Source: Jimgerdemannia flammicorona (lineage: Eukaryota). From it: 36,509 nt of DNA. Below, piece by piece: positions 3,900 through 30,379 of the stretch. Below the pieces are notes generated by a model, which ran no database searches, was not told the DNA's origin, and saw only the letters and a list, made by a program, of their open reading frames with translations. Within the stretch, counting starts at the first letter, position 1. Each line of letters opens with the position of its first letter. The stretch is from positions 1 to 36,509 of the forward strand of contig RBNJ01000215.1 of assembly GCA_003990765.1 (NCBI GenBank), read 5' to 3'. The position numbers were made by a program, and so were the translations under genes.

Positions 3900-4370
3900 G
3901 TGCCTCTACACAAATTTGCCCTATTTACATAAATTAGGTCAGAGTCGTATCACATATACCACCTCTGCTATGCATATGCTTTTCATCCCCTTTGGGACAG
4001 TATATTATTATATTTTTGTGCTCATGTTATAATAAACTATAATCACTCTTTTCCCGGGTTCCATATTGTGAAAGTCATGTTTCACCCAGAGATGCATGTA
4101 TATTATGTTCTGCAATTTATGGTGACGAATATGAGTGCATGACAGGAAAATAATATCCAGTGGTAGCTAGTTCCTGCGTTTCTAAGAACTTCGGTTCAGG
4201 AAGCTTCGAGTGATTTGGTTGTGGTGGTACAGACGGTTCGATGACCATCTGCATGCGTTCTCTACAGTTTTTGGTGGCATTATCATTGTCGTTTGACTTG
4301 CTGCCCATCATATTCAGGTTACAATGAGCCCAAGTCACCCCAATATGTTGCTATATTCACTGTGGACCTC
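3900..4370 (-). pseudogene. Inverted fragment of the family-B gene 3' end plus its downstream spacer
   Basis: ORF 4117..4338(-) (MMGSKSNDNDN..SVPPQPNHSKLPEPKFLE) matches + strand translations at 6114-6422 (SVPPQPYHSKPPETKFLE) and ~24380-24540; 3900-4110 is the reverse complement of the spacer at ~6430-6710. Confidence 0.65.
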
Positions 4371-4429
4371 CTGTTTGAGACCCTATAGCGTGGCAACCGG
4401 TCGTTACAAAATAAATATCATTCATAATT

Positions 4430-4760
4430 AAGAACGCACGAGTGGAACTTTTGGCTCGACTGGCAGGGCTCTTTTCAAGGCTGCCCGTGTTGTCGGTCAT
4501 ACGGGACTACGAGGATTTGCGGGACCGGTTCGGATGTTGAAACTGAGTGGAATGGAAACACGGGTGGGCTAGTTACCTTCACGTGAACTGAGTTGACGAA
4601 CCTTTCCACTCAAAAGATGCTGGGAAGCGGAGTGCAGGTGCAGACGTCCCTTCGATTTTCTTCCCGACGAGTGTCACATCCTCCGAGTTGTTCGATTGCA
4701 AGGTATTACTATTGATCGGCGACGAAAACTATCGGCGGGGCTTGTGGTCAACTGACTCGA
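4430..4760 (+). pseudogene. Fragment of unidentified family C (convergent partner of the Mcp1-like gene)
   Basis: Nucleotide similarity to 16740-17070, 18800-19040, 22900-23190 and 28800-29175; always followed by the shared spacer and the Mcp1-like 3' end. Confidence 0.5.
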
Positions 4761-5031
4761 TGATAGAGCGACGAGTTGGTGAGGATGTCGGAGGTTGCTT
4801 TGGTGTTTTCTCCCCTCGAAAAAAAGCGAGTATTGCTGGGGAAGTTTGATGTCTGAGTGACTCGCCCGTCAATCAATCCGAGCAGGTGAGATAGTAGGAT
4901 GAACGACATTTGTTTATTACAGTTATTACAGACCATCGTTTACACTACACTTCCGATCCCCCTTTCTGCGTATCTTGTGCTTTCTAACAGCTTATATGTT
5001 ACACTGATGTTCCCTCCTTGGCAGCAATACT

Positions 5032-5904
5032 TCACTGCATCCAGCTCTGCGGTAATATTTTACCATAAATCTTCAAATAATCCAACTTCAACGGAATCTT
5101 GTTCGCCCTCCCAATCACGCCCAATCCACCCACCAGCACGCCCGCCACACCAACCACAACCGCATATCGCTCCGTCCTACCACCACTCCGTGGTACCTTC
5201 TCCACGACATTACTTTTCTTCTTTTTCAATACGCGCCGCACTGCGAACGGCATCCCTGATACGGCATGGTATGCCATCAGCCCGACGAGTCCAACGTGGA
5301 ACCCATACGCTGTGAGTGGCCACCGCTGTAGAGCGAGCGAAATATAAGAAAAGTCGAGGAAGGCCGAGTCTCCGAAATGGCGGCGTGGAAGGAGGCGAAC
5401 AACAACGAAATGAGTGACGACGATGGGAACGAGGAGAAATCCCGAAAATGAGTGGTAGGGGAGGAAGGTCGTGGTTGGAGGCAGAATTGGGACAGAGATC
5501 AACGTTTCGACTACGGTGTTTTTCTCGCTACTGATTTTCTTTCGCTTGAACACGAATTCTTTGATCCCCGCTTTGACGGCCCCGCTGAGGAGGTGGACGG
5601 TGAGGGCACCGAAGGTAAGGACGGGCTCAAGCAGACGGTCCTGGTAAAGGGGGCGGCCGAGAAGGAGATAGCGGTTCGCGAGGTCGAGGCCGCCGAGATT
5701 GGCGGCGGAGATCTGGAGAGCGTGAGTGAGGAGAAAGGTGGAGAAGACGAGGGCGGAGGCTGACTGGATGGTCGTCAGAGTGCCATAGGCGCGGTAGACA
5801 TGCGATGTGGAGGTTGTGTCGGAAACAGGGGTGGGTGTGGTTCCAGGGACAGGGGCGGGTGTGGTTCCAGGGACAGTGACGGGAGTATGGTCGGGGACGG
5901 ACAT
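5032..5904 (-). CDS. Mcp1/DUF1691-like multi-pass membrane protein (mitochondrial Vps13 adaptor family), intact, ~290 aa from the first ATG
   Basis: Uninterrupted ORF with family-like segments QSASALVFSTFLLTH, YLLLGRPLYQDRLLEP, HLLSG, HSFSGFLLVPIVVTHFVVVRLLP and YHAVSG, plus several hydrophobic helices. First ATG is at 5904 (the ORF track starts at GTG 5940). Family recognised from memory, not by search. Confidence 0.75.
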   Translation of the reverse strand: MSVPDHTPVTVPGTTPAPVPGTTPTPVSDTTSTSHVYRAYGTLTTIQSASALVFSTFLLTHALQISAANLGGLDLANRYLLLGRPLYQDRLLEPVLTFGALTVHLLSGAVKAGIKEFVFKRKKISSEKNTVVETLISVPILPPTTTFLPYHSFSGFLLVPIVVTHFVVVRLLPRRHFGDSAFLDFSYISLALQRWPLTAYGFHVGLVGLMAYHAVSGMPFAVRRVLKKKKSNVVEKVPRSGGRTERYAVVVGVAGVLVGGLGVIGRANKIPLKLDYLKIYGKILPQSWMQ

Positions 5905-6019
5905 GGTAGTTGTGTCGTTGATGAGGAACAAATACGTCACCCATTAACCCCGGAAATTTCGCAAGCTGACGTCACAAATCATCAGGTGATATTTGCTGCG
6001 GCAGCGAGCACGTGAGAAG

Positions 6020-6422
6020 ATAGACTTCCAAACTAAGTTCATCAAATATCTAACACCCCGATAAATTACCGCCGTCCCAATATCGTCATAGTGTTGATCC
6101 CGACCCCAGTATTTTGGCCAGAGCACATGGTAGAAAATATCGCGGCAACAGCCAATGTAAGCAACATATTGGTGTGTGTGCAATCAGAGATGCACCGGAG
6201 AAGAATAAGACGGTCGTTGAGCCGCGAGTGGAAGCTAGCTGCCAAGATGAGATGTCTGTACCACCACAACCATACCACTCCAAACCCCCAGAAACGAAAT
6301 TCTTGGAAATGGGCATGATCACAGCAACCAGCTTCCGCTGGGTGATATTATTTTCCTGCAGTGACTTTGGCGCGTCATATCCTGCAAATTTATTTCCTCA
6401 CTGCAAGTTGCAGGCGTTGTAG
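6020..6422 (+). pseudogene. Family-B remnant (N-terminal half related to the Zn-cluster genes, different C-terminus)
   Basis: Frameshifted segments HGRKYRGNSQCKQHI and EPRVEASCQDEMSVPPQP; colinear with 15040-15350 and 24150-24600. Confidence 0.6.
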
Positions 6423-6729
6423 CGTATACATGCATCTCGGGTGTGGAACGCGACTTTCACAATATGGAACCCAAGAAAACACAAGAAACTGTAATGATCT
6501 TAATTTATTAGAACATGGGTATAAAGACATAATAATAGACTGTCCCAGAGGGAACGGAAAGAATATGCATAGAAGAGTGGGTATATGAGAGTGAGGCTAT
6601 ATATATAAAAAGCCCAAGTCGAGGCTACGTCTTATGTGGACGTGATACTCAAATAAATGATTCCGAACCCAATCAGGATTGGCTTTATGTAAATTGGAAA
6701 AATTGAGATCGAGTACCTCAATTTAGTGG

Positions 6730-7782
6730 TAGAGCAGTTGGATGTGCTCGTCAGTAGTATTTTACAGCGTGCTGGGATCGGTTGTGTCGACTTCGACGTC
6801 CTTGAGGTCGCGAAGGTACACCATAATAGGATAACATTCTTGTGGGAAGAGCCAGTGTTCTCTATTGAGGATATTGTTGATCTTTCCGATACCGCCGTGC
6901 TTCCTAAGAATTTGGAGATATGGATTGAATTTGTACCGACCGTGGCAGCTGTTGGTCCTGGAGACGATTTGGAGCAGAGATTTAAGAGCCATTTTTCTAA
7001 TATCCTCATCGGTATCATCAAGCTTGTTGCAGAGGTTTGTGATGATTGAGGTGGACCGCGTGCTGTTTCCAAGGCAGGTCCTACCGAGTTGTTCGCAAAG
7101 AGAGCACGGTACATTGCCAAAGCATTTTTTGTTGCTGTTCTTGCACCAAACACAAGCCTTCCCCGGAGATTTTCTTTTCTCTCTCTTGTCGGTAACGTGG
7201 AGTCGACAACGCTTTTTTTTTTTTCTTGCAGTCGGGACACTTGCTATACCGTACAGGATTTGTGGCGGCGATAGACGTGCTGGACAATTGCAGCGTGTCA
7301 CTTGTAGAGTATTGTGTCAAGAGGGAAGGTTGTCCAGCGGACGCACCAAATCTGTTCGGCAACAGAATTTGCGTGACTTCAACGCTATCAGGTAATTACA
7401 ATGCCGTTGGTTTCTGAGATGTTCGCCGAAACTATAGAATAAGCTCGGGAAATGGCTCTGGGTGGTAGGCTGGGTTGGGCTCCAATACTTGAATACTTTC
7501 GTCATTGCGCTCCTCCATGTCGATGCTGCCTTGTTCTTCGAATGGGACAGTGGTATTGGTACCGTAATCGGGATGGCTTTGGAAATTATAGGCGACGAGT
7601 TGATCGAGGTACCCGTTTAACCCACCGCCACTTTTGGTATGTTGCTGCCACAAAGTTTTCGGGGTGGTGGAGTTGTGTTGTTACCCAAATCGGGGTTATT
7701 CTGGAGGATATTGCCATCGCCACCATATTCTCCGATCGCTATACTAAGGTCGGAATCACCGCCGTGATGATATAGAGGGATG
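6730..7782 (-). pseudogene. Zn(II)2Cys6 protein paralog, 5'-truncated and frameshifted
   Basis: Encodes ACVWCKNSNKKCFGNVPCSLCEQLGRTC; the homologous peptide is split over ORFs 7432..7653, 7317..7505, 7081..7362 and 6762..7301, with one shift in the T run at 7213-7224. Confidence 0.8.
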
Positions 7783-7951
7783 CCCATACAGATGCATAAG
7801 CGGGTGTGAACTGGTATGAGCCGGAAGGAATATAAGGCAACTTATATATATCATCGTCGAATTCCTTCGGCAAGTCATAAGAAATTTGGTTTGCGATCTT
7901 GGTGAGCTGGAAAAGCAATTTACAATCACAGTGGCTTGAGTTTAACAAACA

Positions 7952-9632: not shown

Positions 9633-9668
9633 CGTCAATGAGCATTATCATTGCTTTGGTGTTGCAGT

Positions 9669-10743: not shown

Positions 10744-13700
10744 TTACCAATCAAGTTTTTTGTCCCCACAACCAGAGCCGCCGCCACACCCGCTTGTTAC
10801 AATGTCAACACCATCCATCTCACTATCCAGCTCGTTATTGACCCCCTCTAACTCTATGGATTTCTTAGCCGTTGAACTCTTTGTAATCAATAGCTTTTTC
10901 GTCGACAATACGGAGTTCAATGCCTCCACGGACGGCATCAAGGCGTACACCAGTCCGTCGTCGCCAATCTTCACGTCAAACGTCATCAAGTTGTATTTCT
11001 CTTCTTCTCCAGGTACCAAGCACTTGCCGTTTGTTAATGAAAATTCTTCTTGTGCATGCCGCACGAAACGTGGTGTTCCGTCTCCTTGGCCCCCAGCAGT
11101 CCTTGTGATACGTTTGTGTTTTGGGTGGCGTACCACTTATCTGTCGCGCTGTGGAATATTGAAATCTGACCTCGTCATACTTAAACGTCTCACCCGAATC
11201 CTTCGGGAAGAGATGGGCCGGCCCGACGGGAACCCAACTCCGTTCGTTGATTGACGAGGAACAACAGGGAATCCTTGGGCCAGTTAGCTTCGTTGTTGTC
11301 CGCGTTCAGTGATGTACTCGATTTTCTCCTGCCGTTCGTCGGAGTCATTCACCACCGCCGCCCATTCGCATTGATACGTCGATATTAGGTACTCCATCTG
11401 CGTCCCCAGCTCCGCAGCGATCCCCAGGCGATCTTCGATCCCACCTTCCATCTTCTCCAACCAGCGGGCCGTGCGCCAGCCGTCGAGATGTAGTATATCA
11501 GGAAGCGGTCAAGATAGCGGATGCAAAGTTCCTTGGAGGTGTCCGTGGCGAGTGGAGTGTTTGGTTTCGCGCCGCCGTTTCCGCACATGTAGAGGATGTA
11601 ACCTTTGTCAGTACCAATGAGCCCAAAGTCCTTGCTTTGGGCTTCCGTACATTCACGAACACATCCAGAGACGCCGCCTTTCAGATAATATGGTGTTGAG
11701 TTTAATGGCAGCGGCATTAGATTTGGAATTTTCTTTTGTTACATTGTAGAGGATGGGTTACCAACAAAATCCAAACTCACCTTATGCGGAGTTCGCAAAC
11801 CCTTATATTTGTTCCCAATCTTACGGCAAACCCCACGGAATCTCCGATACCGTAACGGCACCAAGTCGAACCAACACAACTCTGCGTATCGAAAATTAGA
11901 AATGGTTTGCTCAGAGAGCAAATCTTTCAGATTGCAGTGTCTTGTGTGATTGCAATGGATCGATGACCCACCTTTACGGTACGAATGGACTTGCCGTATG
12001 CCCTCCGGTCTCAAACCCGCAACGGACCTGTTTCTCCCAAATGTCTGGCAAATCTTGCTTCCTTGAGCCAAACATGTCGATGCGCTGACCGTCAGTAATC
12101 TTACCTGACGAATAAGAGGTTGATACAAAGTTATGAATTGGGTCCCAACCTTGTACATTTGTATTTTATGTCATACAAAACGTTTAAACTTACCAATGGC
12201 AACAAGCTTTTCCGGCGTAATCTCCCCGGCTGGGACGCGAGGACAACAGAATAGGTTGTTGTTAGGTCTAACTAACACGTAGAGATACATTATTTGACAA
12301 TGCCCCAGAAAAGCAACACATACGCACCTCGTTGGATGTTTGCCAAGAAACGATCGTTTGTATCTTGCAATGCCGTGTGATCTAATACGTGATCATTGTA
12401 GAGCGATGCTAGGATGGACGCCATGGCTGGCTTGCAGACTTCGCCCCCGATGACGTCACCATTTTTCCCAGCTACCTGCATGATCTCGGCAAACGTCTTG
12501 AGCTTCTTGAACTTAACGATCTCAAACAGTTTAGTGCGCGAGTACTCGAAATGATGGCAAACGTAGTTCTTCACGGTGACGCCCATCGCTTTCATCTCGG
12601 TCTCGAAGATCTCGGTTACTTGCGGAACGCATCCGCCACATCCTTAACGTGAGAAATACAAACATGTTAAGATCACATGGTTGGCTTCATCGAAGCAAAT
12701 ATCAATCAAAGTGGTCAACCAAGAAGTGGATGATAGCATACCAGTGCCAGTCTTGGAGCGCGACTTCACCTCGCCGACGCTGGTAAGCTTTTTCTCGCGA
12801 ATGACTTTTCGTATCGTCCCTTTTGTGACATTGTTACAAGAACAGACCTGCCCCTCGTCAGGAAGACTGTCTGCACCCACGACAGCGCCACCCTTTGTGC
12901 CGACGATAAGCTCGCCTGGAGGCATCGGAAGTAGCCTCTTCGACTTTCTGAGGGCGTGCAGCTTTGCGTAATCGGACATGTCGCCAACCATCATACCACC
13001 GAGAAGGTGCTTGCCGTCCTTGGAGAAGACGTTCTTCTTGTACACTCTACCAAAGGGGTCATTGTACACCAGCGGCTGCGAGATGTCGGGCCCGGAAAAG
13101 TAGTTCCCAAACCTCGCGACGTGGATTCCGAGAAGCTTGAGTTTGGAGGAGATGTCGCCACCGGAGAACTTCTTCTTCGGGGCCAGCTGGTTGCGGTGTG
13201 TGGTGAGGTTGCGGCTACGACTTCAGCCATTTCGTAACCAGGCGCGACGAGGCGCCGTGGTGGAGCGCGATCTCGCCGACTGCGAAGACATCGTCAGCGC
13301 TTGTTTCAAGGATATCATTGACTTGTACACCTCCGCGAGGATGGACGTCAATACCAGAGATGCGAGCGACATCGCCCCTTTATGAAGAAATAACAATGTT
13401 AAGTGTGTGCGGGACTTTGTATCATATAAGTAACAAACCAATCTGTAACAACTTTAGTAATGAGATACGGACGAATTTCAATCGCAAATACAACCATCGA
13501 CTCTTCAAGGAAGGTACCATCTTCCAACTTCAAACCCGCCACTGCGGCATTGCTATCGGGTATAATTTCGACCGGTGCATTACCGAGAGAAAATTGGATG
13601 TTGAGTTTTTCAATCTCTGCTGACAGTAGTAATGCACCATCATCATCTAGCTGCCGCCTTATCAAACGTGGGTTACGTTCAAAGATGGTGACCTGTAGGC

Positions 13701-14290
13701 CGAGGTCGAGTACGGCCTTGGCAGCTTTGAGGCCTAGCAAACCTCCTCCAACGACGGCTGCTGTCTTGACTCTCTTGGCGTATTCGATGATGGAGTCGAG
13801 GTCCCGGGTGTGCGGTAGACGAACACACCTTTTGAATTCATATTGGGACATTATGGTGGAAACGCGGTGGAGGATCCGGTAGTGAGAACGCAGTAGTCAT
13901 AGTCTACTCGATGACCCGATGATGACTCGATCCATTTCTCGGCGTGATTGACATAGGTGGCCTTCTGTCCCAGGTGGACGACAACTTTTTTTGCAGCGTG
14001 CCATTCGGGAGTTTGCAACAGGAGGCGAGAAGCGTCACGATGGCTAAAATATTGAGTCAAGCCAACACGGTAGTAGGCGACTTTGGGTTCGTTCGCAAAT
14101 AACAAGTACAGTTATTAGCACAAAGCAAAAGATAGAAAGAAAGTAAAAAAGAAGAAGAATAACTGCAATATCATGAGGCTCTTCACAGAAGACTTCTATC
14201 CTGCATGCCTTGTCGGTGTCATACTCTAGGATTTTTTCGATGAACGATAGACCCACCATCCCGAAACCCACCACGGCGATCGGTTGTCAT
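10744..14290 (-). pseudogene. niiA: Assimilatory NAD(P)H nitrite reductase, intron-containing, multiply disrupted
   Basis: Ordered motifs VVGFGMVG, GVFVYRT, VVGGGLLGL, KLKLLGIHVA, QVCSCNNVTKG, GCGGCVPQ, DTNDRFLANIQR, SCVGSTWCRYG, GVSGCVRECTEA, a Rieske remnant and terminal CGDKKLDW. In-frame stop at 13851-13853 and frameshifts near 13810, 13210, 11820 and 11045. Confidence 0.9.
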
Positions 14291-14475
14291 GCTATAGGAT
14301 TCCAAACAGAGGATGTCCGATCAGTCCTGCAATATGTATATATAAGCAATATATTGGCGGGTTTATTATAATCTGAATATGATGGGCCGACAATGATAAT
14401 GGTGTAAAACACCTGGAAGGAATGAAGATAGTCTTGGAGCCATGAGTAGAAGATAGCTGCCAAGGTAATATGTCC

Positions 14476-14845
14476 ATCCCGTTTTATCATAACTCCATTT
14501 CGCCTTCACCCCAGCACCACTCTTCTTTTTCAACACGCGCCGCCCTGCGAACAGCATCCTTGATATGGCGTGGTGTGTCGACAGCCCGACGAGTCCAACA
14601 TGGAACCCGCACGCTGTGAATGACTGCCGATGCAGAGCGAGCTATATGTAAGGAAACCCGAGTCTCCTAAATGGCGGGTAACAATTAAATGGATAGCGAC
14701 GATGGGAACGAGGAGAAATCCTGAAAAGAAGTGATAAGGGAGGAAGGTTTCGGTTTGAAGCATGGTTGGGGAAGAGCTTGACGTTTCGCCTATGGTACCT
14801 TTCTCGCTACTAATTTCCTTTCGCTTAAACGCGAATTCCTTGAGG
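14476..14845 (-). pseudogene. Mcp1-like copy, C-terminal half only
   Basis: KEFAFKRKEISSEK..FLPYHFFSGFLLVPIVAIH aligns to the intact 5032..5904 product; frameshifts and deletions. Confidence 0.8.
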
Positions 14846-14859
14846 GTCCAAAACATAAT

Positions 14860-18249: not shown

Positions 18250-18700
18250 AAAAATTGTGTCCCATATTTGCTGCGACAATCAACAACGTGCTCCTCGATT
18301 TCATCAAAATTCAAGCACTGTCGATGAGCTTTTGAACCGGCATCCTGGCCGTCGAAAACGTCAGGTTCATCGACTTATAGTCGAATTTCCGACGTACGCG
18401 ATAAAATTGCTACCAAAACTCGCTAAATCAACTTCACTTCAGATACCGTAATTATAAATATCCCCCTCCAATACCAAAGTCGACTTGCAGGCTCGTAATA
18501 ACCTCGATATGGTGGGCTGCAAGTCAACCGACAACAATAATGGTGTACAGATGCAGTGAGGAAGGTTGGAATTTGGAGGCATGTTTTTTAATAAGCGGCG
18601 GGGAAGTTATGCGCTGGGAACCTTTTTTTTTTTTTTTTTTTTTTTAACGGACTCTGCGCTGGGAACCTTTATATGGCACGCGTCAAAAGAGTAGATCGCA
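18250..18700. pseudogene. Family-B remnant (+, 18250-18555) joined to the 5' end of a Zn-cluster gene (-, 18545-18700)
   Basis: GTTCATCGACTTATAGTCGAATTTCCGACGTACGCGATAAAATTG matches ~24165-24230; GTACAGATGC..GGAAGGTTGGAATT..GCATGTTTTT matches 21111-21200. Confidence 0.6.
18610..18670 (-). mobile_element. Ultra-short family-A retroposon insertion (9 nt + poly(A)) with TSD
   Basis: TGCGCTGGGAACC(TTT) is duplicated at 18610 and 18655 around T23-AACGGACTC; AACGGACTC is the terminus of the family-A copy at 30402-30410. The paralog at 21167-21203 lacks the insert. Confidence 0.85.
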
Positions 18701-18799: not shown

Positions 18800-19040
18800 T
18801 GGCTCACGTGAACGGAAGAGACGACCAGGTAACAGGGGAGGGAAGGACAAGTGCAATGCTCCTTCGCTTTCCCCGAGGCGCGTGCACAGAGTGACATCCT
18901 TCCGACTGGTCATGGGGACTGACAAGGACAAAAGAAGTAGTTATTATTGTAAATTAATGATATTGCTTTGTCGATAGGCAACTAATATCTTCGGCGTCGG
19001 CAGATCGGCGCCCCTCTTGTGGCAACTGTCATGGTAGAGC
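18800..19040 (+). pseudogene. Family-C fragment
   Basis: NAPSLSPRRVHRVTSFRLV matches 28169..28546(-) and 22953..23135(+). Confidence 0.55.
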
Positions 19041-19588
19041 GACGAGTTTGCGCGTGAGAACGGTGGTCTGGATGTCAGAGGTTGTTTTGGTGTTTTAATG
19101 TGTGCAAAAAGATCGTCTGAATGGCTCACATTGGTCAATGAATCCGAACAGGATAGGTGGTAGTAAGATGAAGCATGATTGCAGCAACTAGCTTTGTCAT
19201 GCGTGTCATATTCTGGTGCCACCTAATTATATCCCTATACTCCGATTGGTCACCATAAGTTGCAGAGCTCTTAGCTATATGGTATACATACATCTTTAGA
19301 AATTTTCAATGACCATAGTTTATTAGGAAATGGGCATAAAACATAATAATAAACCTTATAAAGGGGGCTGAAAGCATATTCATAGAAGAGTGGGTATATG
19401 AAGTCGAGGCTACATAATACAAAAAGGCCGATCGAGGATGCCCCATATGTTAACGTGATACTCCGAAACCAATCAGTGTTGGCTTTACGTTTATGTAAAT
19501 TGGAAAAGTTGAGATCGGGCACCTCAATTTAGTAAATACGAAATGCAACTTTTCGGTGGAGCAGTTGGATGTGCACGTCGGTAGTGTT

Positions 19589-21181
19589 TTACAGTGTGTT
19601 GGGATCGGTTGTGTCGGTGTCGATGTCCTTGAGGTCGCGAAAGTATTCTCTAACAGGATGACATTCATGAGGGAAGAGACAGTGTTCCTTATTGAGAACA
19701 CTGTTGATCTTCCCGATACCGCCGTGCTTCTTAAGAATTTGGAGATATGGGTTGAAGTTATACCGATCGTGGCAGCCGTTGGTCCCCGAGACGATTTGAA
19801 GCAGAGATTTGAGAGTTTTTTTTCTAATATTCTCATCGGCATCATCAAGCTTGTTGCAGAGGTTTGTGATGATTGCAGTGGACTGCGTGTTGTTTCCAAG
19901 GCAGGTCCTATTGAGTTGGCCGCAAAGAGAGCACGGCACATTACCAAAGCATTTTTTGTTGCTATTCTTGCACCAAACACAAGCCATTCCCGGAGATGCT
20001 CTTTTCTCTTTCTTGTCAGTGGTGTGGAGTCGACAACGCTTCTTCATTTTCTTGCAGTCAGGACACTTGCTGCATGGTACGGGATTTGTGGTGACGATAG
20101 ACGTGCTGCGCAATTGCGGCGAGTCGCTTGTAAAGGATTGTGTCAAGATGGAAGGTTGTCCAGCGGTCGCATCAAGCTTGTTTGGCTTGACCTCCTCGAC
20201 ACCTTCAAGTACTATGGAATAAGTTTGGGGAATGACGCCAGGTGGCAGGCTGGGGTCGGGCTTCGACTGTTGAAGACTTTCGTCATTGCGTTTGTGAAAG
20301 GGGATTTTGTACACAATGTCCATGATGGTGTCACCTTCTTCGAATGGGACGGTGGTATTGGTATTGGGATCAAGATAGTTTTGGACATTATAGGCGACAA
20401 CTTTATCGAGGTACACGTTTAATCCACCGTCATCTTCGGTATCCTTGTCGCTGTCGTTCAGATTGTCAGATGGAGGAGTTGTGTTGGGATGCCTCTGGAG
20501 GATATTGCAGTAGCCGCCATATTCTTCACCACATTCTCCGGACGCGATATTAAGGTCGAAATCACTGCCGTGACGATATAGGGGAATTTCCACAATGTTG
20601 GTATCCAATTTGAAGTTAGTTTCGGTGGCATATTCATCGCGCATGTCGGGGATTTGACTGTAGTCAATGAACTCGGCGAAGTCTTCGACAGTGTGCGCGC
20701 TACGATCGTCGGTTACCTCTGACAGATTTTCTTCGGTCAGGATGCTGGGGTTATCTACGTTCAAAAAGCTTTCATCATTTAGCTCAATGTTTATGTTATT
20801 TATATTTAGATTCCCTTCGGCGTCTTGTAAATTGTTGAAACCTCCTTGATCGGTTGCGTTGGTGAACATACTGAAACCGGGTAGAAGGTCAAGATTGCCT
20901 CGGAATATGACCATGAACTTTTCATCGTCAGTGCAGATGTTTGACCCTAGCAAGTCTTGAAATTCGAGGTTGCTCATGCTGGTGGGAGAGCGTCGATCAT
21001 CCATGAAGTCGGGGGGCGTATTGGCTCGCTGATACGTTGAACTTGATTCGAGGTGTGTTTGGAGGTCGTCGTTGCAATTAAAGATGAATGAACACCTTAG
21101 ATTGGGACAAGTACAGATGCGGAAAGGAAGGTTGGAATTGGGGAGCATGTTTTTGAATAAGCTGTGGGAAGTGTTATGCAC
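19589..21181 (-). CDS. Intronless Zn(II)2Cys6 zinc-cluster protein, 530 aa, putative transcription factor
   Basis: Single ORF; exact CX2CX6CX5CX2CX6C motif CVWCKNSNKKCFGNVPCSLCGQLNRTC (19901-19981), preceded by basic CSKCPDCKKMKKRCRLH; long acidic N-terminal region. Alternative start at 21148. Confidence 0.85.
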   Translation of the reverse strand: MHNTSHSLFKNMLPNSNLPFRICTCPNLRCSFIFNCNDDLQTHLESSSTYQRANTPPDFMDDRRSPTSMSNLEFQDLLGSNICTDDEKFMVIFRGNLDLLPGFSMFTNATDQGGFNNLQDAEGNLNINNINIELNDESFLNVDNPSILTEENLSEVTDDRSAHTVEDFAEFIDYSQIPDMRDEYATETNFKLDTNIVEIPLYRHGSDFDLNIASGECGEEYGGYCNILQRHPNTTPPSDNLNDSDKDTEDDGGLNVYLDKVVAYNVQNYLDPNTNTTVPFEEGDTIMDIVYKIPFHKRNDESLQQSKPDPSLPPGVIPQTYSIVLEGVEEVKPNKLDATAGQPSILTQSFTSDSPQLRSTSIVTTNPVPCSKCPDCKKMKKRCRLHTTDKKEKRASPGMACVWCKNSNKKCFGNVPCSLCGQLNRTCLGNNTQSTAIITNLCNKLDDADENIRKKTLKSLLQIVSGTNGCHDRYNFNPYLQILKKHGGIGKINSVLNKEHCLFPHECHPVREYFRDLKDIDTDTTDPNTL

Positions 21182-21984: not shown

Positions 21985-22710
21985 AGTCACGTGCCCGTGT
22001 TTCGGTTTCCACATTACACGCCTACCGCATCGATGGCACCCTAGCGACCATCCCGTCGGCCTCTGTCTCGTCTTCTTCTCCAGATCTTTGCCAATCTCGG
22101 CGGCTTTGACCTCGCGAACCACTACCTCCTTCTCAGTCGCCCCCTCTACCAGGACCGTCTACTTGAGCCTGTCAATTCCTATGGTGCCATCACGTCCACC
22201 TCCTCAGCGGAGCTACCAAGGCGTATCAAGGAATTCGTGTTCAAGCGAAGAGAATCAAGTAGCGAGAAAAACACCGTAGTCGAAAATTAACCCCGCCTCC
22301 GACCACAACCTTCCTCCCCTACCACTCTTTTTTGGGATTTCTCCTCGCTCCCATCGTCGCCACCCACTTCATTGTTTCCCGCCTCCTTCCACGCCGCCAT
22401 TTCGGAGACTCGGCTTCCTCGACTTTTGTTACATTTCGCTTGCTCCGCGGCGGTGGTCACTCATGACGGACGGGTTCCACGGTGCCCGTCGGCCTACCAT
22501 GTCATACCAGGGTACTGCTCGCGGTGCAGCGCGTCTTGAATAGGAAGAGCGGAGGTGGAGAGAAGGCGAAAAGCAGTGGTGGTAGGACTGGGAGATGTGC
22601 GATCGTGATAGGCGTGACAGGCGGGTTGGTCGCGATTGGCAGGGTGAACAAGATTTCGTTGGAGTTGGATTATTTGGTAAGGTATTGCCACACAGCTGGG
22701 TGCAGTGAGA
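21985..22710 (+). pseudogene. Mcp1-like copy, degenerate, inverted orientation
   Basis: Reverse complement of 5040-5840 with frameshifts (e.g. CCCCTCTACCAGGACCGTCTACTTGAGCC, CGCCGCCATTTCGGAGACTCGGC). Confidence 0.85.
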
Positions 22711-22899
22711 TATTGCTACCAGGAGATAACATTAGCGTAGTGTAAGCCATTGGGAAACACAATATACCAGTGTGCAATACTTAGAAAGCGGGGGCGGTGG
22801 TGTAGTGTAAGTGATGGTATGCAATAAACAAAATGTCGTTCATCTTACTACCCGATTCTTGTACACAAGTTCGAATTCATTGACCGACGTGGACCACGT

Positions 22900-23190
22900 T
22901 GTCAGTCATGCTGAACAACGAGAAGACGAAGTGAACTAAGTGGACCGACTATTTGCCACCTCACGTGAACGGAAGAGACGACTTGGTAACAAGAGAGAGA
23001 AGTGCGAGTGCAAACGCTCCTTCCCTTTTCCCCGAGGTACGTTCACAGAGTGACATCCCTTCGACTAGTCATAGGACTGACAAGAATGAAAGAGGCAGTT
23101 ATGATTGTAAGCTACTGATATTACTTTGTCAATAGACGACTAATATCTTCCGCGTGGGCGGATCGGCGCCCCTCTTGTGGCAACTGTCAT
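22900..23190 (+). pseudogene. Family-C fragment
   Basis: PPHVNGRDDLVT..NAPSL..SYDCKLLILLC shared with the other family-C copies. Confidence 0.55.
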
Positions 23191-23416
23191 AGTAAAGCAC
23201 GTGAGAAGGGTAGTGGGGATGTCGGAGGTTGCTTTAGTGTTTTCATGTGTTCGAGAAGGTCGTCTGAATGCCTCACAATCTGAACAGATGGATAGGTGGA
23301 ACTAAGATGAACCACATCTGTTTATTGGACACCATTGCTTACATCACCCCTTTCTGGATATGTTGTTTTCTAATAGCATATACACTGGCAACGCCTTACC
23401 AAAAACTTCAATAGTC

Positions 23417-23830
23417 TCATTTCAACGAAATCTTGTAAGACCCCCCCATCGCGACCAACCCACTCACCAGCATGCCTCTCCCCGTCCTACCACCACTCCG
23501 TTCCGCCTTCTCCCACACGCGCCACACTGCGAAGAGAATCCCTGATACGGCATGGTATGCCGCCAACCACGAGCACCCATGTGCCGTAACGAGATGTAAG
23601 AGGTAGACGGTCCTGTAGAGGGGACGACCGAGAAGAAGGCAACAGATCGCGAGGTCGATGCTGCCGAGGTTGGCGACGGAGAAGACGAGGGCGGAGGCCG
23701 ACTGGATAGTCGTCAGGGTATCATGAGCGCAGTAGATGTGTAATATGATAGTCGTAGTGGGAATTACAGGGGCGGGTGTGGTTCCAGAGAGAACGGTGAC
23801 TGACACGCGAGTAACAAACACGTCACCCAT
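23417..23830 (-). pseudogene. Mcp1-like copy with large internal deletions
   Basis: 137-aa ORF retains TLTTIQSASALVFS, LLLGRPLY and AYHAVSG but lacks the central helices. Confidence 0.8.
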
Positions 23831-23959: not shown

Positions 23960-24600
23960 CAAAACATACTCCAACTTTAACAGCGCGAACCCAAGTTCAA
24001 AGTGTCAATGCTCAGTGTGCTCCCCGACTTTATCAATCATAGAATCCCCTCCACCAGAGTAACCTCAAAATGCAACACTTGTTAAGCACTGTTGATGAAT
24101 AATTTATGAACTTATCACTCGAGCATCATGGCCGAAAAAAATCTGTCCGACATCGTCGGAACTTCAAGTTCATCGACTACAAGTTCATCGACTATAATAA
24201 AATATCCGGCATACGCGATAAAATTGCCGCCAACATCATTATGAATATCCTCCAATATCGCCATAATGTTGATCCTGAACCCAGCACTATATGATGGAAA
24301 ATACGGTGGCGACAGTCAATATAAGCAACATATTGAGGTATGTGCAATCAAAAGATGACTTGGGCGCTTATTATAAGAGTATGATGGGCCGTAAGTCAAA
24401 CGACAACAATAATGGTGTAAAGCGCCTGAAAGGAATGATGGTCTTTGAGCCGTGAGTAGAAGCTAGCTGCCAAGGTGAGATGTCCGTACCATCACAACCA
24501 ATTTCACTCGAAGCCCCCAGAATCAAAGTTCTTGCAGCTTCAGCCGAGTGATATTATTTTCCTGTGGTGGATTTGTCACGCGTGTCATCTGATTATAGCA
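23960..24600 (+). pseudogene. Family-B remnant (most complete copy)
   Basis: FKFIDY(KFIDY)NKISGIRDKIAA..SNILRYVQSKDDLGAYYKSMMGRKSNDNNNG..FEP*VEASCQGEMSVP, with stops and frameshifts. Confidence 0.65.
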
Positions 24601-24883: not shown

Positions 24884-26320
24884 TCAATTCAGCAAATTGA
24901 ATTGTAGCTTTTCAGGGGGGGGGTCGGTTGTGTTGGTGTCGATGTCCTTGAGGTCGCGAAAGTATGCCATAACAGAATAGCATTCATGTGGGAAGAGCCA
25001 GTGTTCTCTATTGAGGACACTGTTTATCTTTTCGATACCACCGTGCTTCTTAAGAATTTGGAGATATGGATTGAATTTGTACCGGCCGTGGCAGCCGTTG
25101 GTCCCGGAGACAATTTGGAGCAGATATTTGAGAGCCATTTTTCTAATATCCTCATCGGCATCATCAAGCTTGTTGCAGAGGTCAGTGATGATTGCGGTGG
25201 ACTGTGTGCCGTTCCCAAGGCAGGTCCTACCGAGTTGGTGGCAACGAGAGCACGGTACATTGCCAAAGCATTTTTTGTTGCCATTATTGCACCAAACGCA
25301 GGCCTTTCCCGGAGATATTCTTTTTTCTTTCTTGTCGGAGGTGGCTTGGAGCCGACAACGCTTCTTCCTTTTCTTGCAATCGAGACACTTGCTGTGCGGT
25401 ACAGGATTCGTGGTGGCGATAGACGTGCTGGACAATTGCGGCGTGTCGCTTGTGGGAGATTGTGTCGGGGGGAAAGGTTGTCCAGTGGATGCATCAATCT
25501 TGTTCGGCTGCAGATTTTGTACAATGCCGTAAGCCTCTGAGATGTTCGCCGAAACTATTGAATAAGCTCGGGCAATGACTTTGGGTGGTAGGCTGGGGTT
25601 GGGCTCCGATGCTTGAATACTTTCGTCATTGCGTTTGTGAAAGGGAATGCTGTACATGATATCCTGTTCTTCGAATAGGACAGTGATATCGGTATCGTAA
25701 TCAGGATAGTTTTGGGCGTTATAGGCGACGAATTGACCGAAGTACCCGTTTAATCCACCGCCACTTTCGGTATCTATGTAGCTGTCACCAAGTTTTCCGG
25801 GTGGAGGAGTTGTGCTATTGTCCAAGTTGGGGTGACTCTGGAGGATATCGGTGTCGCCACCATATTCTTCGATCGCGATACTAAGGTTAATATCGGCGGT
25901 ATTTTCGTCGGGTATGTTGGGTATTTGGCTAAAGTCAATGAGCTCGGCAAAATTTTCTTCAAGGCTTGTGTTTCGATCGCTTCGTGCGTCTTGTAAATTT
26001 CCGAAACCTCTTTGATCGGTTGCGTTGGTGGCGATGCTGAAACCAAGTAGCAGGTTAAGATTTCCTCGTAAAATGGCCATGGAGCTTTTATCGACAGTGC
26101 CGAATGGAGATTCGAGATGAGCTCGGAGGTTGTCGTTGCCGTCAAAGGCGAATGGACACCTGGGATTGGGACAGGTACAGATGCTGCAAGGAAGGTTGGA
26201 ATTGGAGGGGATGTTTGGTGGGGAGGAGGGGGGGACTTTAATATATGCCTCGCAGGCTGACGTAAATCTAAATCGGACATGGCATATGCTGGGATACTTA
26301 CTCTGACCCAGTAGGTTCAA
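24884..26320 (-). CDS. Second long-ORF Zn(II)2Cys6 paralog (start uncertain; first ATG at 26080, ~398 aa)
   Basis: Open frame with CVWCNNGNKKCFGNVPCSRCHQLGRTC; colinear with 19589..21181. The Met used by the paralog reads ATC here and the C-terminus differs. Confidence 0.7.
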   Translation of the reverse strand: MNLLGQSKYPSICHVRFRFTSACEAYIKVPPSSPPNIPSNSNLPCSICTCPNPRCPFAFDGNDNLRAHLESPFGTVDKSSMAILRGNLNLLLGFSIATNATDQRGFGNLQDARSDRNTSLEENFAELIDFSQIPNIPDENTADINLSIAIEEYGGDTDILQSHPNLDNSTTPPPGKLGDSYIDTESGGGLNGYFGQFVAYNAQNYPDYDTDITVLFEEQDIMYSIPFHKRNDESIQASEPNPSLPPKVIARAYSIVSANISEAYGIVQNLQPNKIDASTGQPFPPTQSPTSDTPQLSSTSIATTNPVPHSKCLDCKKRKKRCRLQATSDKKEKRISPGKACVWCNNGNKKCFGNVPCSRCHQLGRTCLGNGTQSTAIITDLCNKLDDADEDIRKMALKYLLQIVSGTNGCHGRYKFNPYLQILKKHGGIEKINSVLNREHWLFPHECYSVMAYFRDLKDIDTNTTDPPPEKLQFNLLN

Positions 26321-27534: not shown

Positions 27535-28125
27535 CCGAACCTCGAACTGCTACCTCCTTTTCGGTCACCCCCTCTACCAGGACCATCTACTTGAGCCTAT
27601 TATTACCTATGGTGTTTTTACCATCCACCTCCTCAGCGGGGCCGATCAAGGAATTCACGTTCAAGCGAAAGGAAACCAGTAGTAAGAAAAACGTTATAGT
27701 CGAAACGTCAACCTCCGCCCCAACTCCGCTTCCAATCACAACCTTCTCCCCTACCATTCCTTTCCGGGATTCTCGTCGTTTCCATTGTCGCCACTTACCC
27801 CGTCATTTCGGAGACTCAGCATTCCTTGACCTTTTTTACATCTTGCTCGCTCTGCAGCTATGGCCACTCGGAGTATACGTGTTCCACGTCGGACTGGCGG
27901 CATGCCATGCCGTATCAGGGATGCCATTAGCGGTGCGGCGCGTCTTTGAAAAAGAAGAGTGGTAGTTGCGAGAAGGCGAAACCGAGTAGTGGTAGGACGA
28001 GGGTATATGCGGTCGTGGGCGTGACGGGCGTGCTGGGGAGGGTTGGTACACAATAGGGAGAGCGAACAAGATTCCGTTGAGTTGGATTTATGGTAAGGTG
28101 TTGTCGCAGAGCTGGGTGCAGTGGG
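27535..28125 (+). pseudogene. Mcp1-like copy, 5'-truncated, inverted orientation
   Basis: YLLFGHPLYQDHLLEP, KEFTFKRKE and HFGDSAFLDLFYILLALQLWPL are spread across frames. Confidence 0.85.
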
Positions 28126-28239
28126 GTATTGCAGCCAGGGAAGGAGCATTTATGTAGCATATATGCTATTAGAAAACGCAACACACCCAAACCCCAGAAA
28201 GCGGGACGGGGTACAATGTAAGCAATAAACAAATGTTGT

Positions 28240-29175
28240 TCATGCATTGACGGAGGGATGTCACCCTATGCACGCGCCTCGGGGAAAGCGAAGGGGCATT
28301 TGTACTTGTACTTCCCTCCACAGCGGGATGGTTTGTTACCTGGTCGTCTCTTCCGTTTACGTGGGGTGGCAAATAGCCGGCCAACTCGTTCACCTCGTTT
28401 AGACATCGGAACCATTCCCGCGAACTCTCGTCGTTCGGCATGACCGACAATGCGATCCGACAAGGGCAATCCTTCGGATCCTTTCCAATCTGTCCCATGG
28501 CGTCGTGCAAATACCCGTCACCCAGTTGATCGGTTTGCGTTTGCACAGCCGCGGTTTAGAGGGCGGTTTTCATAAGGAAAGGTTTGTATTTTAGGCTCTA
28601 GCTAAATTTTTCAGATGATTCATTATAATAAAAACGCATCGGCTCGTCGTCGTCGAACACTTGCAATGTCTGAATGACCCGAGAACTAAACTGTCTCCTC
28701 CCAAAAGAGTGAAGCGTGCACACGGCAGGGTCATCGTCCCGGGTCGTGAAGACAGAGATGAGAAACAGAAAGGCGATTGTTTTGCGAAGGGAGAGTATGC
28801 CCGGGAATGCGCGGGCTGTTTCAAGGCGGACCGCGTTGCTGGTCATGTCGGACGACAAGATTTTGTGGGACCAGCTCGGAAGTGAGCTGAATGAATCGGA
28901 AACACTGAGGCTATTAGTCGCTTTACATGAACGGAAAAGACAAGTTGTTTCACTGAAAAAATGCTGGGGAGAGGAATGTAGATGCAGATATACCATCTAT
29001 TTTCCACCCGACGCGCGTGTATAGCGTGAGATCCTTCCGGCTTGTCGTGGGGCCCGACAAGAACAAAGGAGAGATAGCTATGATTGCAAACGACGGATAT
29101 TACTTTGTCAATGGACAAGGAATAATATCGGCGGGAGGGATGGGTCCCTCGCTTGTGAGCAAAGGTCTCTATAAT
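28240..29175. pseudogene. Two divergent family-C fragments (28240-28546 on -, 28600-29175 on +)
   Basis: Both match the family-C sequences at 16.5-17.1, 18.8-19.0 and 22.9-23.2 kb. Confidence 0.55.
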
Positions 29176-29409
29176 AGAGCGACGAGAAAATTATGGTGGG
29201 TAAGTTGGGGTTGCTATAGCGTTTAGAAGAAGGAGTATTACGGAGATAGTCTGATCGCTTATGTTGGTCAATGAATCAGATAGTAAGATGCACGTCATTT
29301 TTCATTACACACCATTGGTTACACAACATCCGCGGCCCCGCTTTCTGGGCATGTCGTATTTATTCAGCTTATACAATACACTCATGCTTCATCCCTGGCA
29401 GCAATACCT

Positions 29410-30140
29410 AACTGCATCATAATCTTCAAATAATCCCGCCTCAACGGAATCTTGTTCGCCTTTCCGATCGCGACCAATCTACTAACCAGTACGTCTGACA
29501 CACACACCACAACCACATATCTCTCCATCCTACCACCACACTGTTTTGCCTTCTCCAGACCACTACTCTTCTTTTCAACACGCCGCACCGCGAACGACAT
29601 CCTTGACACAGCGTGGTATGTCGCCAGCCCAACTGGAATCCGTGAGTGGGTACCGCTGCAGAGCGAGCGAGATATAAGAAAATTGAGGAAACGAAGTGAG
29701 GTGCAACAATGGAAACGAGAAGCCCGAAAAGGAGTGGTAGGTTGAAGGCCGGGTTGTGGGAGAGGTTGGTGTCTCGACTATAGCAATTTTCTCACTACTG
29801 CTTTCCTTTCGCTTGAGCGCGAATTCCTTAATCCTTGCCTTGGCGGACCGTGGGGAGGTGAACAGTGAGGGCACAGTAGATAATAATGGGCTCAAGGAGT
29901 AGAGGAGACGGCCGAGAAGGAGGTAGGTCGACGCCGCCGAGCTTGGCGAGAGAGCATAGGGCGGAGAGAGTCCGTTAAACAAAAAAAAAAAAAGAGCATA
30001 GGGCGGAGGCCTACTGGATGGCTGTCAGAGTGCATAGGGCAGAGGCCTACTGGATAGCTGTCAGAGTGCCATAGGTACTAGACGACTCGTGTCGGGAACA
30101 GGAGTGGGTGTGGTTGTGCCGCACATGAGCAAATGCGTCA
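29410..30140 (-). pseudogene. Mcp1-like copy, degenerate
   Basis: YLLLGRLLY, KEFALKRKESSSEK, YHSFSGF, FSYISLALQRYPLT and KIPLRRDYLKI in shifting frames; 36-bp tandem duplication at 29996-30067. Confidence 0.85.
29951..30008 (+). mobile_element. Second ultra-short family-A insertion with 16-bp TSD
   Basis: AGAGCATAGGGCGGAG at 29951-29966 and 29993-30008 flanks A-GAGTCCGTT-AAAC-A12; GAGTCCGTT is the sense 3' end of family A. Confidence 0.85.
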
Positions 30141-30379
30141 CGTGAACACGTGCGAAGCCACCTAAGGACCGTGACTCTTTTCTTCGAAAGCGAAAGTCAT
30201 ATAATGCAGGAATCGTAGGACAAGGATCGGGGCGCCTAAAATACACGTTTCTAAGCCACTGAAGATGTCGCCACTTTTACTTCTGGGTGGCTTAGTATGA
30301 TTAAAGAAACAATGTGTGACACAAAATTCTATATGAAGTTAAAACAATTGTTATGAAAATTAACATAATGTGAAATCTC

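Follow-up and report, generated by a model that had tools for sequence, protein, structure and literature searches.

We identified a real, repeated array of four modules in a 36,509-nucleotide stretch of DNA from the soil fungus Jimgerdemannia flammicorona, a member of the Endogonales (the window), built of MCP1-like genes (M), zinc-cluster-like genes (Z) and two homologous non-coding blocks, C and B, that join them. The array probably originated long ago, when a burst of segmental duplication took place locally, and then went through birth-and-death decay, with Z under selection and M as its passenger. Self-BLASTN, in which repeat matches reached 1139 bits, far above chance, and TBLASTN with the intact proteins recovered seven M and four Z copies. 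The order C-M-B-Z recurs at three sites (4.47-7.8, 16.5-21.2 and 22.9-26.2 kb), with partial or inverted pieces at 3.95-4.34 kb (B inverted), 14.36-16.1 kb, 22.0-22.9 kb (M4 inverted) and 27.5-30.0 kb (M6 and C6 inverted, then C7-M7); self-BLASTN thereby confirmed the layout given in a preliminary description of this DNA, and also revealed that the edges of the unit vary between copies. The features, by position in the window, are:

3950..4336, minus strand: B0, part of the B intergenic block in inverted orientation (self-BLASTN and alignment with the other B copies)
4473..4888: C1, non-coding, 3' of M1, matching 28819-29013, 16760-16858 and 23213-23244; no Pfam family in its ORFs
4889-5943, minus strand: M1 (CDS 5032..5904), the sole intact M, 290 aa, single exon (PF07950 and full-length alignment)
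6073..6590: B1, between the M1 start and the Z1 stop, being the promoter side of M and the 3' flank of Z
6600..7800, minus strand: Z1, truncated and frameshifted, three TBLASTN pieces in three frames, residues 1-185 missing
10747..14280, minus strand: nitrite-reductase (NiR) pseudogene in the middle of the array, a part that is single-copy, and not a cassette module (TBLASTN query: J. flammicorona NiR, 1043 aa)
14363..14475: B2a, misplaced B fragment, 77% identical to 24368-24485
14492..14849, minus strand: M2, partial pseudogene, about codons 114-240 (TBLASTN pieces in two frames)
14863..16125, plus strand: Z2, inverted broken pseudogene, split over several frames and interrupted by stops, with everything after the zinc cluster missing
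16510..17236: C3, non-coding, 3' of M3 (self-BLASTN, C alignment)
17172..17981, minus strand: M3, pseudogene, 10 of 14 indels frameshifting, 4 stops, reading switches among three frames
18349..18550: B3, B block of cassette 3 (self-BLASTN, B alignment)
18803..19300: C3b, extra solo C between B3 and Z3 (18803-19175 is 79% identical to 22960-23314)
19589..21148, minus strand: Z3, intact ORF of 519 aa, acidic in its N-terminal region, then bearing a C6 zinc-cluster-like motif and ending in an ARM/HEAT-like helical tail
22008..22880, plus strand: M4, inverted pseudogene, tail to tail with M5, 9 of 12 indels frameshifting
22926..23385: C5, C block 3' of M5 (self-BLASTN, C alignment)
23386..23791, minus strand: M5, pseudogene with internal deletions, 6 of 11 indels frameshifting, 2 stops
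24176..24533: B5, B block of cassette 4 (self-BLASTN, B alignment)
24884..26320, minus strand: Z4, open, 478 codons stop to stop, 398 aa from the first ATG
27542..28243, plus strand: M6, inverted pseudogene, tail to tail with M7, 7 of 10 indels frameshifting
28251..28398, minus strand: C6, short inverted C fragment behind M6 (self-BLASTN)
28536..29277: C7, C block 3' of M7 (self-BLASTN, C alignment)
29273..30040, minus strand: M7, pseudogene, 8 of 12 indels frameshifting, 3 stops

As had been described, M1 alone among the seven M copies found by TBLASTN is intact. It matches the MCP1_TM family (PF07950) with an E value of 7.7e-12 and 46.3 bits (cut-off 22), and shares 96% identity with a J. 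flammicorona protein and 39-46% with MCP1 of Umbelopsis and Apophysomyces. M1 can be aligned end to end with Mucoromycota MCP1, with 56 invariant columns; its private changes (27 synonymous, 29 non-synonymous) indicate moderate constraint only. We predict from these alignments that M1 is the organism's real MCP1 gene. Two studies describe Saccharomyces cerevisiae Mcp1 as a mitochondrial outer-membrane adaptor recruiting Vps13 (PMC5626531, PMC6168272). M1 resembles it, as known here from sequence, in having MCP1_TM above threshold and a full-length match to the Umbelopsis and Apophysomyces proteins named "mitochondrial adapter protein MCP1". The accessible parts of the MCP1 literature searched report no case of six pseudogene copies beside MCP1. 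In M2-M7 together, 42 of 63 indels are frameshifting (2-10 per copy) and there are 10 stops in total, M2 having a 10-nt frameshifting deletion and one stop. The dead copies retain 66-80% identity to M1 (73% for 22850-22008 in M4, inverted, against 4892-5811 in the M1 region), and the arms of the inverted M pairs are 67-75% alike.

The four zinc-cluster copies of the preliminary description were likewise found by TBLASTN, but its statement that just one has an intact ORF was not upheld, Z3 and Z4 both being open. Intact M and intact Z do sit in different cassettes, as it had noted: M1 lies beside the broken Z1, and the cassettes of Z3 and Z4 carry the broken M3 and M5. At the position aligned to the start codon of Z3, Z4 has a codon other than ATG. 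Between Z3 and Z4, dN/dS was 0.26 in the C-terminal domain (Fisher P 6.6e-07) and 0.58 in the N-terminal region (P 0.003), the indels (at least 8) were all in frame (P about 1.5e-4), and simulated neutral ORFs seldom survived free of stops (P 0.009 for Z3 and 0.010 for Z4). Z1 is open only in its C-terminal domain (ORF 6762-7316), has no ATG ahead of that domain and gave dN/dS of 0.45-0.46 in comparison with Z3 and Z4; in Z2, the residues of about 45-219 are replaced by a B fragment (15042-15352) in opposite orientation. These patterns indicate that Z3 and Z4 have been retained by selection as protein-coding paralogues and that Z1 and Z2 are dead; with the whole neighborhood in decay, a recent loss of function in Z3 and Z4 may have left no visible trace yet. 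Of the options offered earlier for this locus, selection on Z with MCP1 as passenger is the fitting one, with the long ORFs, dN/dS below 1 and in-frame indels of Z3 and Z4 on one side and the broken M3 and M5 on the other.

The Zn_clus family was the top Pfam match in all three Z copies searched, covering profile positions 1-36 of 39, with scores of 17.0-19.6 bits (18.6 for Z3, 19.6 for Z1) that all fall under the cut-off of 21. The cysteine spacing, C-X2-C-X6-C-X5-C-X2-C-X6-C, and the basic patch before it are like those of Gal4-type Zn2Cys6 factors (PF00172; Put3, 1ajy/1zme, and Pho7, 6o19), and one genuine Zn2Cys6 factor matches Z at an E value of 9e-4. Unlike in these factors, the cluster is found towards the C-terminus (residues 390-416 of 519) rather than the N-terminus, about two ARM/HEAT-like repeats follow it, a Fungal_trans domain is missing, the Zn_clus match is sub-threshold and there are no close relatives. 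Weak profile matches of Z3 were to ARM-repeat structures and to Put3/Pho7 (E 0.02-0.04). Searches of about 5.8 billion sequences and about 1.8 billion cluster representatives, and two protein-atlas searches, returned no relatives, and Z appears to be a lineage-restricted orphan protein. Its function is a guess because of this orphan status, the sub-threshold zinc cluster and the poor structure model (pLDDT 51.5); the most likely role would be that of a nuclear DNA-binding regulator.

C and B had at first been taken for plus-strand genes, a reading contradicted by the indels of lengths not divisible by three that fill their alignments (many in that of C1) and by the absence of any Pfam family from their ORFs, the B1 ORF at 6054-6422(+) included. 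Both are better described as homologous non-coding flanks. B1 is homologous to 24176-24533, 18349-18550, 15042-15352, 14363-14475 and, inverted, 3950-4336; within B0, 3950-4234 is 68% identical to 6590-6254 (inverted), with shorter matches at 19315-19400, 24356-24533 and 18482-18542. In the C3 region, 16894-17795 is 71% identical to 29000-29899, and 16510-16728 matches 28536-28744. C6 shares 75% identity with 22926-23063 (28398-28251, inverted) and 81% with 18805-18904 (28363-28251, inverted). The solo C3b, at 18.8-19.3 kb, was absent from the first reading of the array and further matches 16895-17124, 29007-29186 and, inverted, 28363-28251.

The copies are 63-84% identical (differences of 16-37% plus many indels), and K2P distances are 0.25-0.38 among M and 0.19-0.38 among Z. 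Maximum-likelihood trees are star-like, with internal branches of 0-0.04 and terminal branches of 0.08-0.28, M3 and M7 forming the only pair to reach 94% support; such trees yield neither the order of duplication nor evidence that M and Z were duplicated together. The suggestion of a birth-and-death locus is borne out by this independent divergence and by the death of 8 of the 11 gene copies, M and Z combined. It had also been proposed that the dead copies serve as an archive from which gene conversion feeds sequence into the live genes, a role for which many diverged copies in both orientations within 26 kb would be suited. We regard this as most improbable: a GENECONV-like test was significant after correction for 0 of 21 M pairs (smallest P 0.037), the long terminal and near-zero internal branches speak against it, and self-BLASTN found no tract longer than 32 nt above 90% identity, beside a 31-nt exact match (18624-18654 and 30380-30410) outside M and Z. 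Candidate tracts among the Z copies (alignment columns 1615-1658) were rejected, as they reflect the conserved domain of Z1, Z3 and Z4 set against the misaligned, truncated Z2.

The age of the copies was judged against X1, one public run from a close relative, whose RNA label is a guess and whose contigs show neither strand nor level. Separate X1 contigs fit M3 at 98-99% over 17222-17867 (4-7 mismatches per about 330 nt; word depth 78-124), a 710-nt contig fits M4 at 98.6% over 22057-22763 (10 mismatches in 707 nt), and a Z contig shares 92% identity with Z3, the codon changes being 19 synonymous and 8 non-synonymous. The copies are therefore real and far older than the split from the relative, and the Z contig shows at least one further Z paralogue somewhere in that relative. 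Repeat-rich genomes are hard to assemble, and the repeats might be mis-assembled copies of a single locus; differences of this size between copies, and distinct contigs for M3 and M4, leave that explanation next to no credence. The NiR contigs of X1 lack stretches of 81-91 nt, one of which has GT..AG ends on the minus strand, and X1 on this basis suggests cDNA. That would accord with transcription of the dead M copies, the contigs on M3 and M4 being its products and the inverted pairs M4|M5 and M6|M7 giving double-stranded or antisense RNA that tunes M1 via RNA interference. We consider such a role very unlikely, given the guessed RNA status of the strandless contigs, the neutral decay seen in the frameshifting indels, and the divergence between pair arms and from M1; identity of 66-80% is too low for small RNAs to match M1.

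Transposons such as Pack-MULEs and Helitrons capture gene fragments, and the array shares with their products a host gene (M) present as many dead copies, foreign sequence and a repeat-rich genome. It differs from them in having no terminal repeats, transposase, Rep/helicase or defined ends, and in copies that are, as far as seen, only local. The selfish multi-gene unit proposed earlier would make Z the gene of an unclassified low-copy mobile element that captured the adjoining MCP1 and spread as a C-M-B-Z unit. Such an origin would suit the orphan status of Z, the additional paralogue in X1, the position of the array between LINE-like fragments and a Gypsy element, and a genome of a type reported to hold >77% repeats (PMC10386755); copies elsewhere in the genome are possible and would favor it. 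We nevertheless find it unlikely. The 25 longest inverted repeats (of 53 pairs) are all M-M, Z-Z, C-C or B-B, leaving no terminal inverted repeats or defined ends, and neither the 128 spacer ORFs searched nor Z gave a match to a transposase, integrase or reverse-transcriptase family, in agreement with the earlier remark that no transposase or terminal repeat bounds the units. In addition, unit edges are unlike from copy to copy, all copies are old and about equally diverged, and descriptions of 356 other windows of this genome contain no look-alike, a weak test that falls short of a whole-genome search.

Under local duplication followed by decay, an ancestral block of about 3.5-4.5 kb would have comprised two minus-strand genes, Z upstream of M, with B as their shared intergenic sequence and C behind M. 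A single old burst would have placed several copies of this block close by, some direct and some inverted, and these would then have evolved independently. M1 would have been kept as the gene for the mitochondrial outer-membrane adaptor and the six other M copies have decayed as redundant passengers; Z3 and Z4 would have been kept as protein-coding paralogues, with Z1 and Z2 decaying. The copying may have involved non-allelic recombination together with fold-back or template-switch errors of replication, a combination that would yield the tail-to-tail pairs M4|M5 and M6|M7. Birth-and-death evolution of tandem gene clusters is a concept of Nei and co-workers, and the array is like such clusters in its local duplication, independent divergence, many pseudogenes with few selected survivors, and lack of homogenization. 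It is unlike them in that its unit consists of two unrelated genes with uncoupled fates (one cassette retains M, and two different ones retain Z), that inverted copies accompany direct ones, and that one old burst takes the place of continuing turnover. The array is ordinary in kind, reflecting the usual way in which gene families grow and shrink.

The NiR pseudogene in the middle of the array covers residues 17-1043 of the protein and contains an in-exon stop as well as frame changes at places where an intron would not fit. With this pseudogene and dead retroelements, the neighborhood as a whole is decaying.

The contig carries an old local amplification of a two-gene block, in direct and inverted orientation, that was followed by birth-and-death sorting: an MCP1-like gene (M) was kept once, an orphan zinc-cluster-like gene (Z) twice, and the remaining copies are dead. 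Self-BLASTN of the window gave 52 repeat pairs of 63–91% identity, and a more sensitive run provided the full map. By the coverage profile, repeated DNA occupies 3.9–7.8, 14.3–16.1, 16.5–21.5, 22.0–26.25, and 27.0–30.1 kb, and 8.25–14.25 kb is single-copy DNA. TBLASTN with the two intact proteins found seven M and four Z copies in the window, and alignment placed one block, C, behind the 3' end of M in six places and another, B, between the start of M and the stop of Z, also in six. The preliminary description had reported a recurring C–M–B–Z cassette, and self-BLASTN, the coverage profile, and TBLASTN bear out this order; as M and Z are both on the minus strand, the order in the direction of transcription is Z, B, M, C. 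An inverted fragment precedes every complete unit as well as the partial unit C7–M7, and the unit edges vary between copies in the sensitive self-BLASTN:

3.95–4.34 kb, inverted fragment B0
4.47–7.8 kb, complete unit 1
14.4–16.1 kb, inverted fragment, the Z2 mosaic
16.5–21.2 kb, complete unit 2, with an extra solo C at 18.8–19.3 kb
22.0–22.9 kb, inverted fragment M4
22.9–26.2 kb, complete unit 3
27.5–28.4 kb, inverted fragment M6 with C6, ahead of C7–M7

Blocks C and B had initially been taken for plus-strand genes. This did not hold: indels of lengths not divisible by three abound in their alignments, and their ORFs contain no Pfam family. The reading that fits the aligned blocks best is that C flanks M on its 3' side and B is the M–Z intergenic region. 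Short tandem repeats with units of ~80–125 nt, 77–85% identical, are found at 7952–8192 and 21268–21521, just past Z1 and Z3 on their 5' sides, and an 85-nt palindromic MITE-like element lies within B3 at 18187–18271. Several contigs of X1, a public sequencing run from a close relative, match only the latter stretch (summed word depth of 380 in the bin) and are unlike on both sides, so that this is a multi-copy short element. No Rfam families or tRNAs were found in the window.

The first M copy, M1 (5032–5904, minus strand), is an intact one-exon gene of 290 aa. Judged from its sequence, M1 is a member of the MCP1 family: it matches PF07950 (MCP1_TM) at 46.3 bits, above the Pfam threshold of 22 (E 7.7e-12, profile positions 1–104 of 105), and is collinear from end to end with Mucoromycota homologues, the alignment having 56 invariant columns along its full length. 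It shares 96% identity with a J. flammicorona hypothetical protein and, with 84–91% of M1 covered, 39–46% with the "mitochondrial adapter protein MCP1" of Umbelopsis and Apophysomyces; these matches place the window in an Endogonales fungus. The N-terminus is proline-rich. Yeast MCP1 is known to reside in the mitochondrial outer membrane and to have a motif that binds Vps13 (PMC5626531, PMC6168272). The J. flammicorona protein model P0001 (221 aa) tracks M1 up to RWPLTA and then continues in an alternative frame to an early end. The alternative frame is also open in the window, at 5210–5527 on the minus strand, and the short form is probably a mis-predicted intron in the annotation and not a real truncated product. 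Compared with M1, copies M2–M7 together contain 10 in-frame stops and 63 indels. Frameshifting indels number 42, the two-thirds share to be expected in the absence of selection; by eye, the reading of M3 switches among three frames.

The four Z copies differ in their integrity:

6600–7800, minus strand, Z1: reads in frame over the C-terminal domain alone, with the frame changing at least twice upstream of it and the first ~185 residues missing (TBLASTN)
14863–16125, plus strand, Z2: inverted and broken, with a B fragment inserted
19589–21148, minus strand, Z3: intact ORF of 519 aa
24884–26320, minus strand, Z4: 478 codons open, the first ATG giving 398 aa; no ATG at the codon that corresponds to the Z3 start

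The intact M thus stands beside a dead Z (M1 adjoins Z1), and the two open Z copies, Z3 and Z4, stand beside dead M copies, in agreement with the earlier observation that intact M and intact Z sit in different cassettes. Selection on the zinc-cluster genes, one of the possibilities originally raised, is upheld by the comparison of Z3 and Z4. The C-terminal 161 residues give a dN/dS of 0.26 (Fisher P 6.6e-07) and the N-terminal part one of 0.58 (P 0.003); compared with Z1, each of the two copies gives 0.45–0.46. At least eight indels separate the two, all of them in frame, which has a chance of ~1.5e-4 assuming that two-thirds of neutral indels shift the frame. When neutral substitutions were simulated in the amount of the terminal branches, the ORF stayed stop-free in 0.9% (Z3) and 1.0% (Z4) of the trials. 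The low dN/dS, the in-frame indels, and the rarity of neutral ORF survival together indicate that Z3 and Z4 kept coding for most of their history.

The copies are old. The K2P distances are 0.25–0.38 among M pairs and 0.19–0.38 among Z pairs, and the maximum-likelihood trees are star-like, with internal branches of 0–0.04, terminal branches of 0.08–0.28, and M3+M7 as the sole grouping at 94% support. This shape points to a copying burst and then long independent decay; the module trees are too star-like to test co-duplication of M and Z. If the dead copies served as a donor archive for gene conversion, as had been suggested, converted tracts would be expected, and we saw none: in a GENECONV-like permutation test, the smallest P among the 21 M pairs was 0.037. 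Candidate conversion tracts in Z were rejected, the "significant" runs being the conserved domain common to Z1, Z3, and Z4 set against a misaligned Z2. A RIP-like defence was rejected as well. RIP-type mutation consists of overwhelming C:G to T:A change with a drop in GC, whereas the M and Z copies show neither: C:G>T:A changes outnumber T:A>C:G by only ~1.6–3.4 to 1 in all copies, live M1 among them, which is the usual mild GC-to-AT bias, and GC is 0.50–0.56 in all M and 0.46–0.47 in all Z copies. The distances, the conversion test, and the trees agree that the paralogues diverged independently, without homogenization, and pseudogenes lie beside survivors under purifying selection (Z3, Z4, and M1), so that the locus is, as first proposed, one of birth and death.

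An alternative to local amplification is that the cassette is a selfish multi-gene unit. Transposable or composite mobile elements would be recognized by defined ends and an element-encoded enzyme. We found no terminal repeats, terminal inverted repeats, or target-site duplications at the unit edges, which themselves vary, and the 25 longest of 53 inverted-repeat pairs were all M–M, Z–Z, C–C, or B–B copies. None of 128 spacer ORFs matched transposase, integrase, reverse transcriptase, or Rep families, two of them having unrelated sub-threshold family matches; ORFs for reverse transcriptase and Gypsy gag-dUTPase are located outside the array, at 32.8–36.5 kb. The descriptions of 356 other windows of the same genome included nothing that resembles M1 or the Z domain. 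C–M–B–Z therefore does not appear to be a mobile unit, although this is the weakest point of the analysis, the search for copies in this genome having covered only the window and the descriptions of the 356 others.

The Z protein has an acidic N-terminal region of 380 residues (62 D+E vs. 30 K+R), followed by a basic patch and six cysteines, C-X2-C-X6-C-X5-C-X2-C-X6-C, that are invariant in Z1, Z3, and Z4. This is the consensus spacing of the Zn2Cys6 (PF00172) family, and Z resembles the Zn2Cys6 factors in it. Zn_clus ranked first among the Pfam matches of each of the three copies, at 18.6 (Z3), 17.0 (Z4), and 19.6 (Z1) bits, below the cut-off of 21. Unlike the usual Zn2Cys6 factors, whose cluster is N-terminal and which have a fungal-specific middle homology domain, Z has its cluster at residues 390–416 of 519 and no Fungal_trans match. 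The tail is helical in an AlphaFold2 model, in which the pLDDT of the domain, 51.5, is too poor for a fold search. The tail weakly matches HEAT/ARM repeats, with E 4e-07 for designed armadillo proteins when summed over repeats and ~0.009 for the ARM repeats of importin-alpha, and Put3 and Pho7 were also matched weakly, at their zinc-cluster domains (E 0.02–0.04). No relatives were found in a word-indexed search of 5.8 billion sequences or in an exhaustive profile search of 1.84 billion representatives. The latter returned six weak matches (E 4.5e-07 to 9e-04), one an ordinary Zn2Cys6 factor and five long proteins, of which the three scanned were all HEAT-repeat proteins. Two protein-atlas searches with Z gave no usable match, and metagenomes scanned with either the Z domain or the M alignment yielded no confirmed locus. 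From these features, Z is probably a lineage-restricted, nuclear, zinc-cluster-like regulator.

The run X1 provides an independent view of the array. X1 is the sole run listed, its RNA label ("RNA?") is a guess, and its contigs show neither strand nor level; it was compared with window positions 6301–26300 only, and M1 (5032–5904) is outside this range. Two contigs on M3 have 7 mismatches over 341 nt and 4 over 329 nt, respectively, and one on M4 has 10 over 707 nt. As M3 and M4 have separate contigs, the copies are real and distinct, and they long predate the split from the relative. A 452-nt contig matches the Z3 domain at 92%, and the codon changes listed for it number 27, with 19 synonymous and 8 non-synonymous (Fisher P 8e-09). 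The synonymous divergence of this contig, ~0.29, is far above the 1–2% seen at M3 and M4, and it would thus come from a further Z paralogue and not from the Z3 orthologue. Other contigs match a nitrite-reductase (NiR) pseudogene in the single-copy stretch:

10747–14280, minus strand, NiR pseudogene: collinear with residues 17–1043 of the intact 1043-aa J. flammicorona enzyme (TBLASTN)
13851–13853, in-frame stop inside an exon
13804–13808, frame change, with only 5 nt between the pieces
13217–13235, loss of 11 nt, filled by X1 contigs with 10+1 letters

The exon pieces are 85–94% identical to the J. flammicorona enzyme, and the X1 contigs here are 95–96% identical. The contigs lack five stretches of 81–91 nt, one of them GT..AG-ended on the minus strand and another not, and, as they also fill the 11-nt loss, they resemble the spliced transcripts that an intact paralogue or orthologue would give. 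The missing stretches suggest that X1 is cDNA, and if so, transcription of M3, M4, and Z-type genes would follow; both are hints only.

The copying itself probably combined unequal recombination with replication errors of the fold-back or template-switch kind, which would yield the tail-to-tail pairs M4|M5 and M6|M7. A far bolder reading, to which we give little credence, is that Z is a family born in Endogonales that joins a C6 zinc cluster and ARM-type repeats behind an acidic, activation-like region, forming a new type of fungal regulator; as the family grew it would carry the neighbouring MCP1 with it, and the resulting MCP1 pseudogenes would stay transcribed and perhaps have a regulatory use. 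Under local amplification and sorting, the finding is real, neatly documented, and ordinary in kind: a clean, well-bounded case of a two-gene block amplified and then sorted, with a housekeeping gene retained once and a young orphan gene in two copies. The six M pseudogenes provide a local neutral yardstick for measuring selection on the Z family, which is flagged as a candidate lineage-specific regulator in Endogonales, little-studied plant-symbiotic fungi. Otherwise the locus does not change what is known of gene duplication, and only the orphan Z family might repay more work. Literature searches on Jimgerdemannia genomes or duplication, on Mcp1/Vps13, and on Zn2Cys6 in Mucoromycota turned up nothing on this locus.

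The NiR decay and the flanking repeats place the array in a decaying, repeat-flanked region; a review puts Jimgerdemannia genomes at ~240 Mb and states that repeats can make up >77% of that of J. flammicorona (PMC10386755). A strongly GC-skewed sequence occurs in three direct copies, 80–91% identical, on both sides of the array (4–1142, 1851–3015, and 30380–31441). The copy on the right adjoins broken reverse-transcriptase ORFs (32791–34089, minus strand; RVT_1 below threshold), and the copies thus look like 5'-truncated LINE-type fragments. The front end of a Ty3/Gypsy element at 34895–36508 (plus strand), with a dUTPase (E 8e-37) placed after the Gag zinc knuckle and before the protease, is an ordinary dead element. 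The single-copy stretch also contains a small ORF with a signal-peptide-like start (9227–9514, plus strand) and an ORF at 10265–10495 (minus strand) with a sub-threshold match, 24.3 bits vs. 25, to the fungal protease inhibitor family amfpi-1. AT-rich tracts are found at 1001–2000 (GC 0.30) and 3001–4000 (GC 0.28), compared with a GC of ~0.45–0.55 elsewhere.
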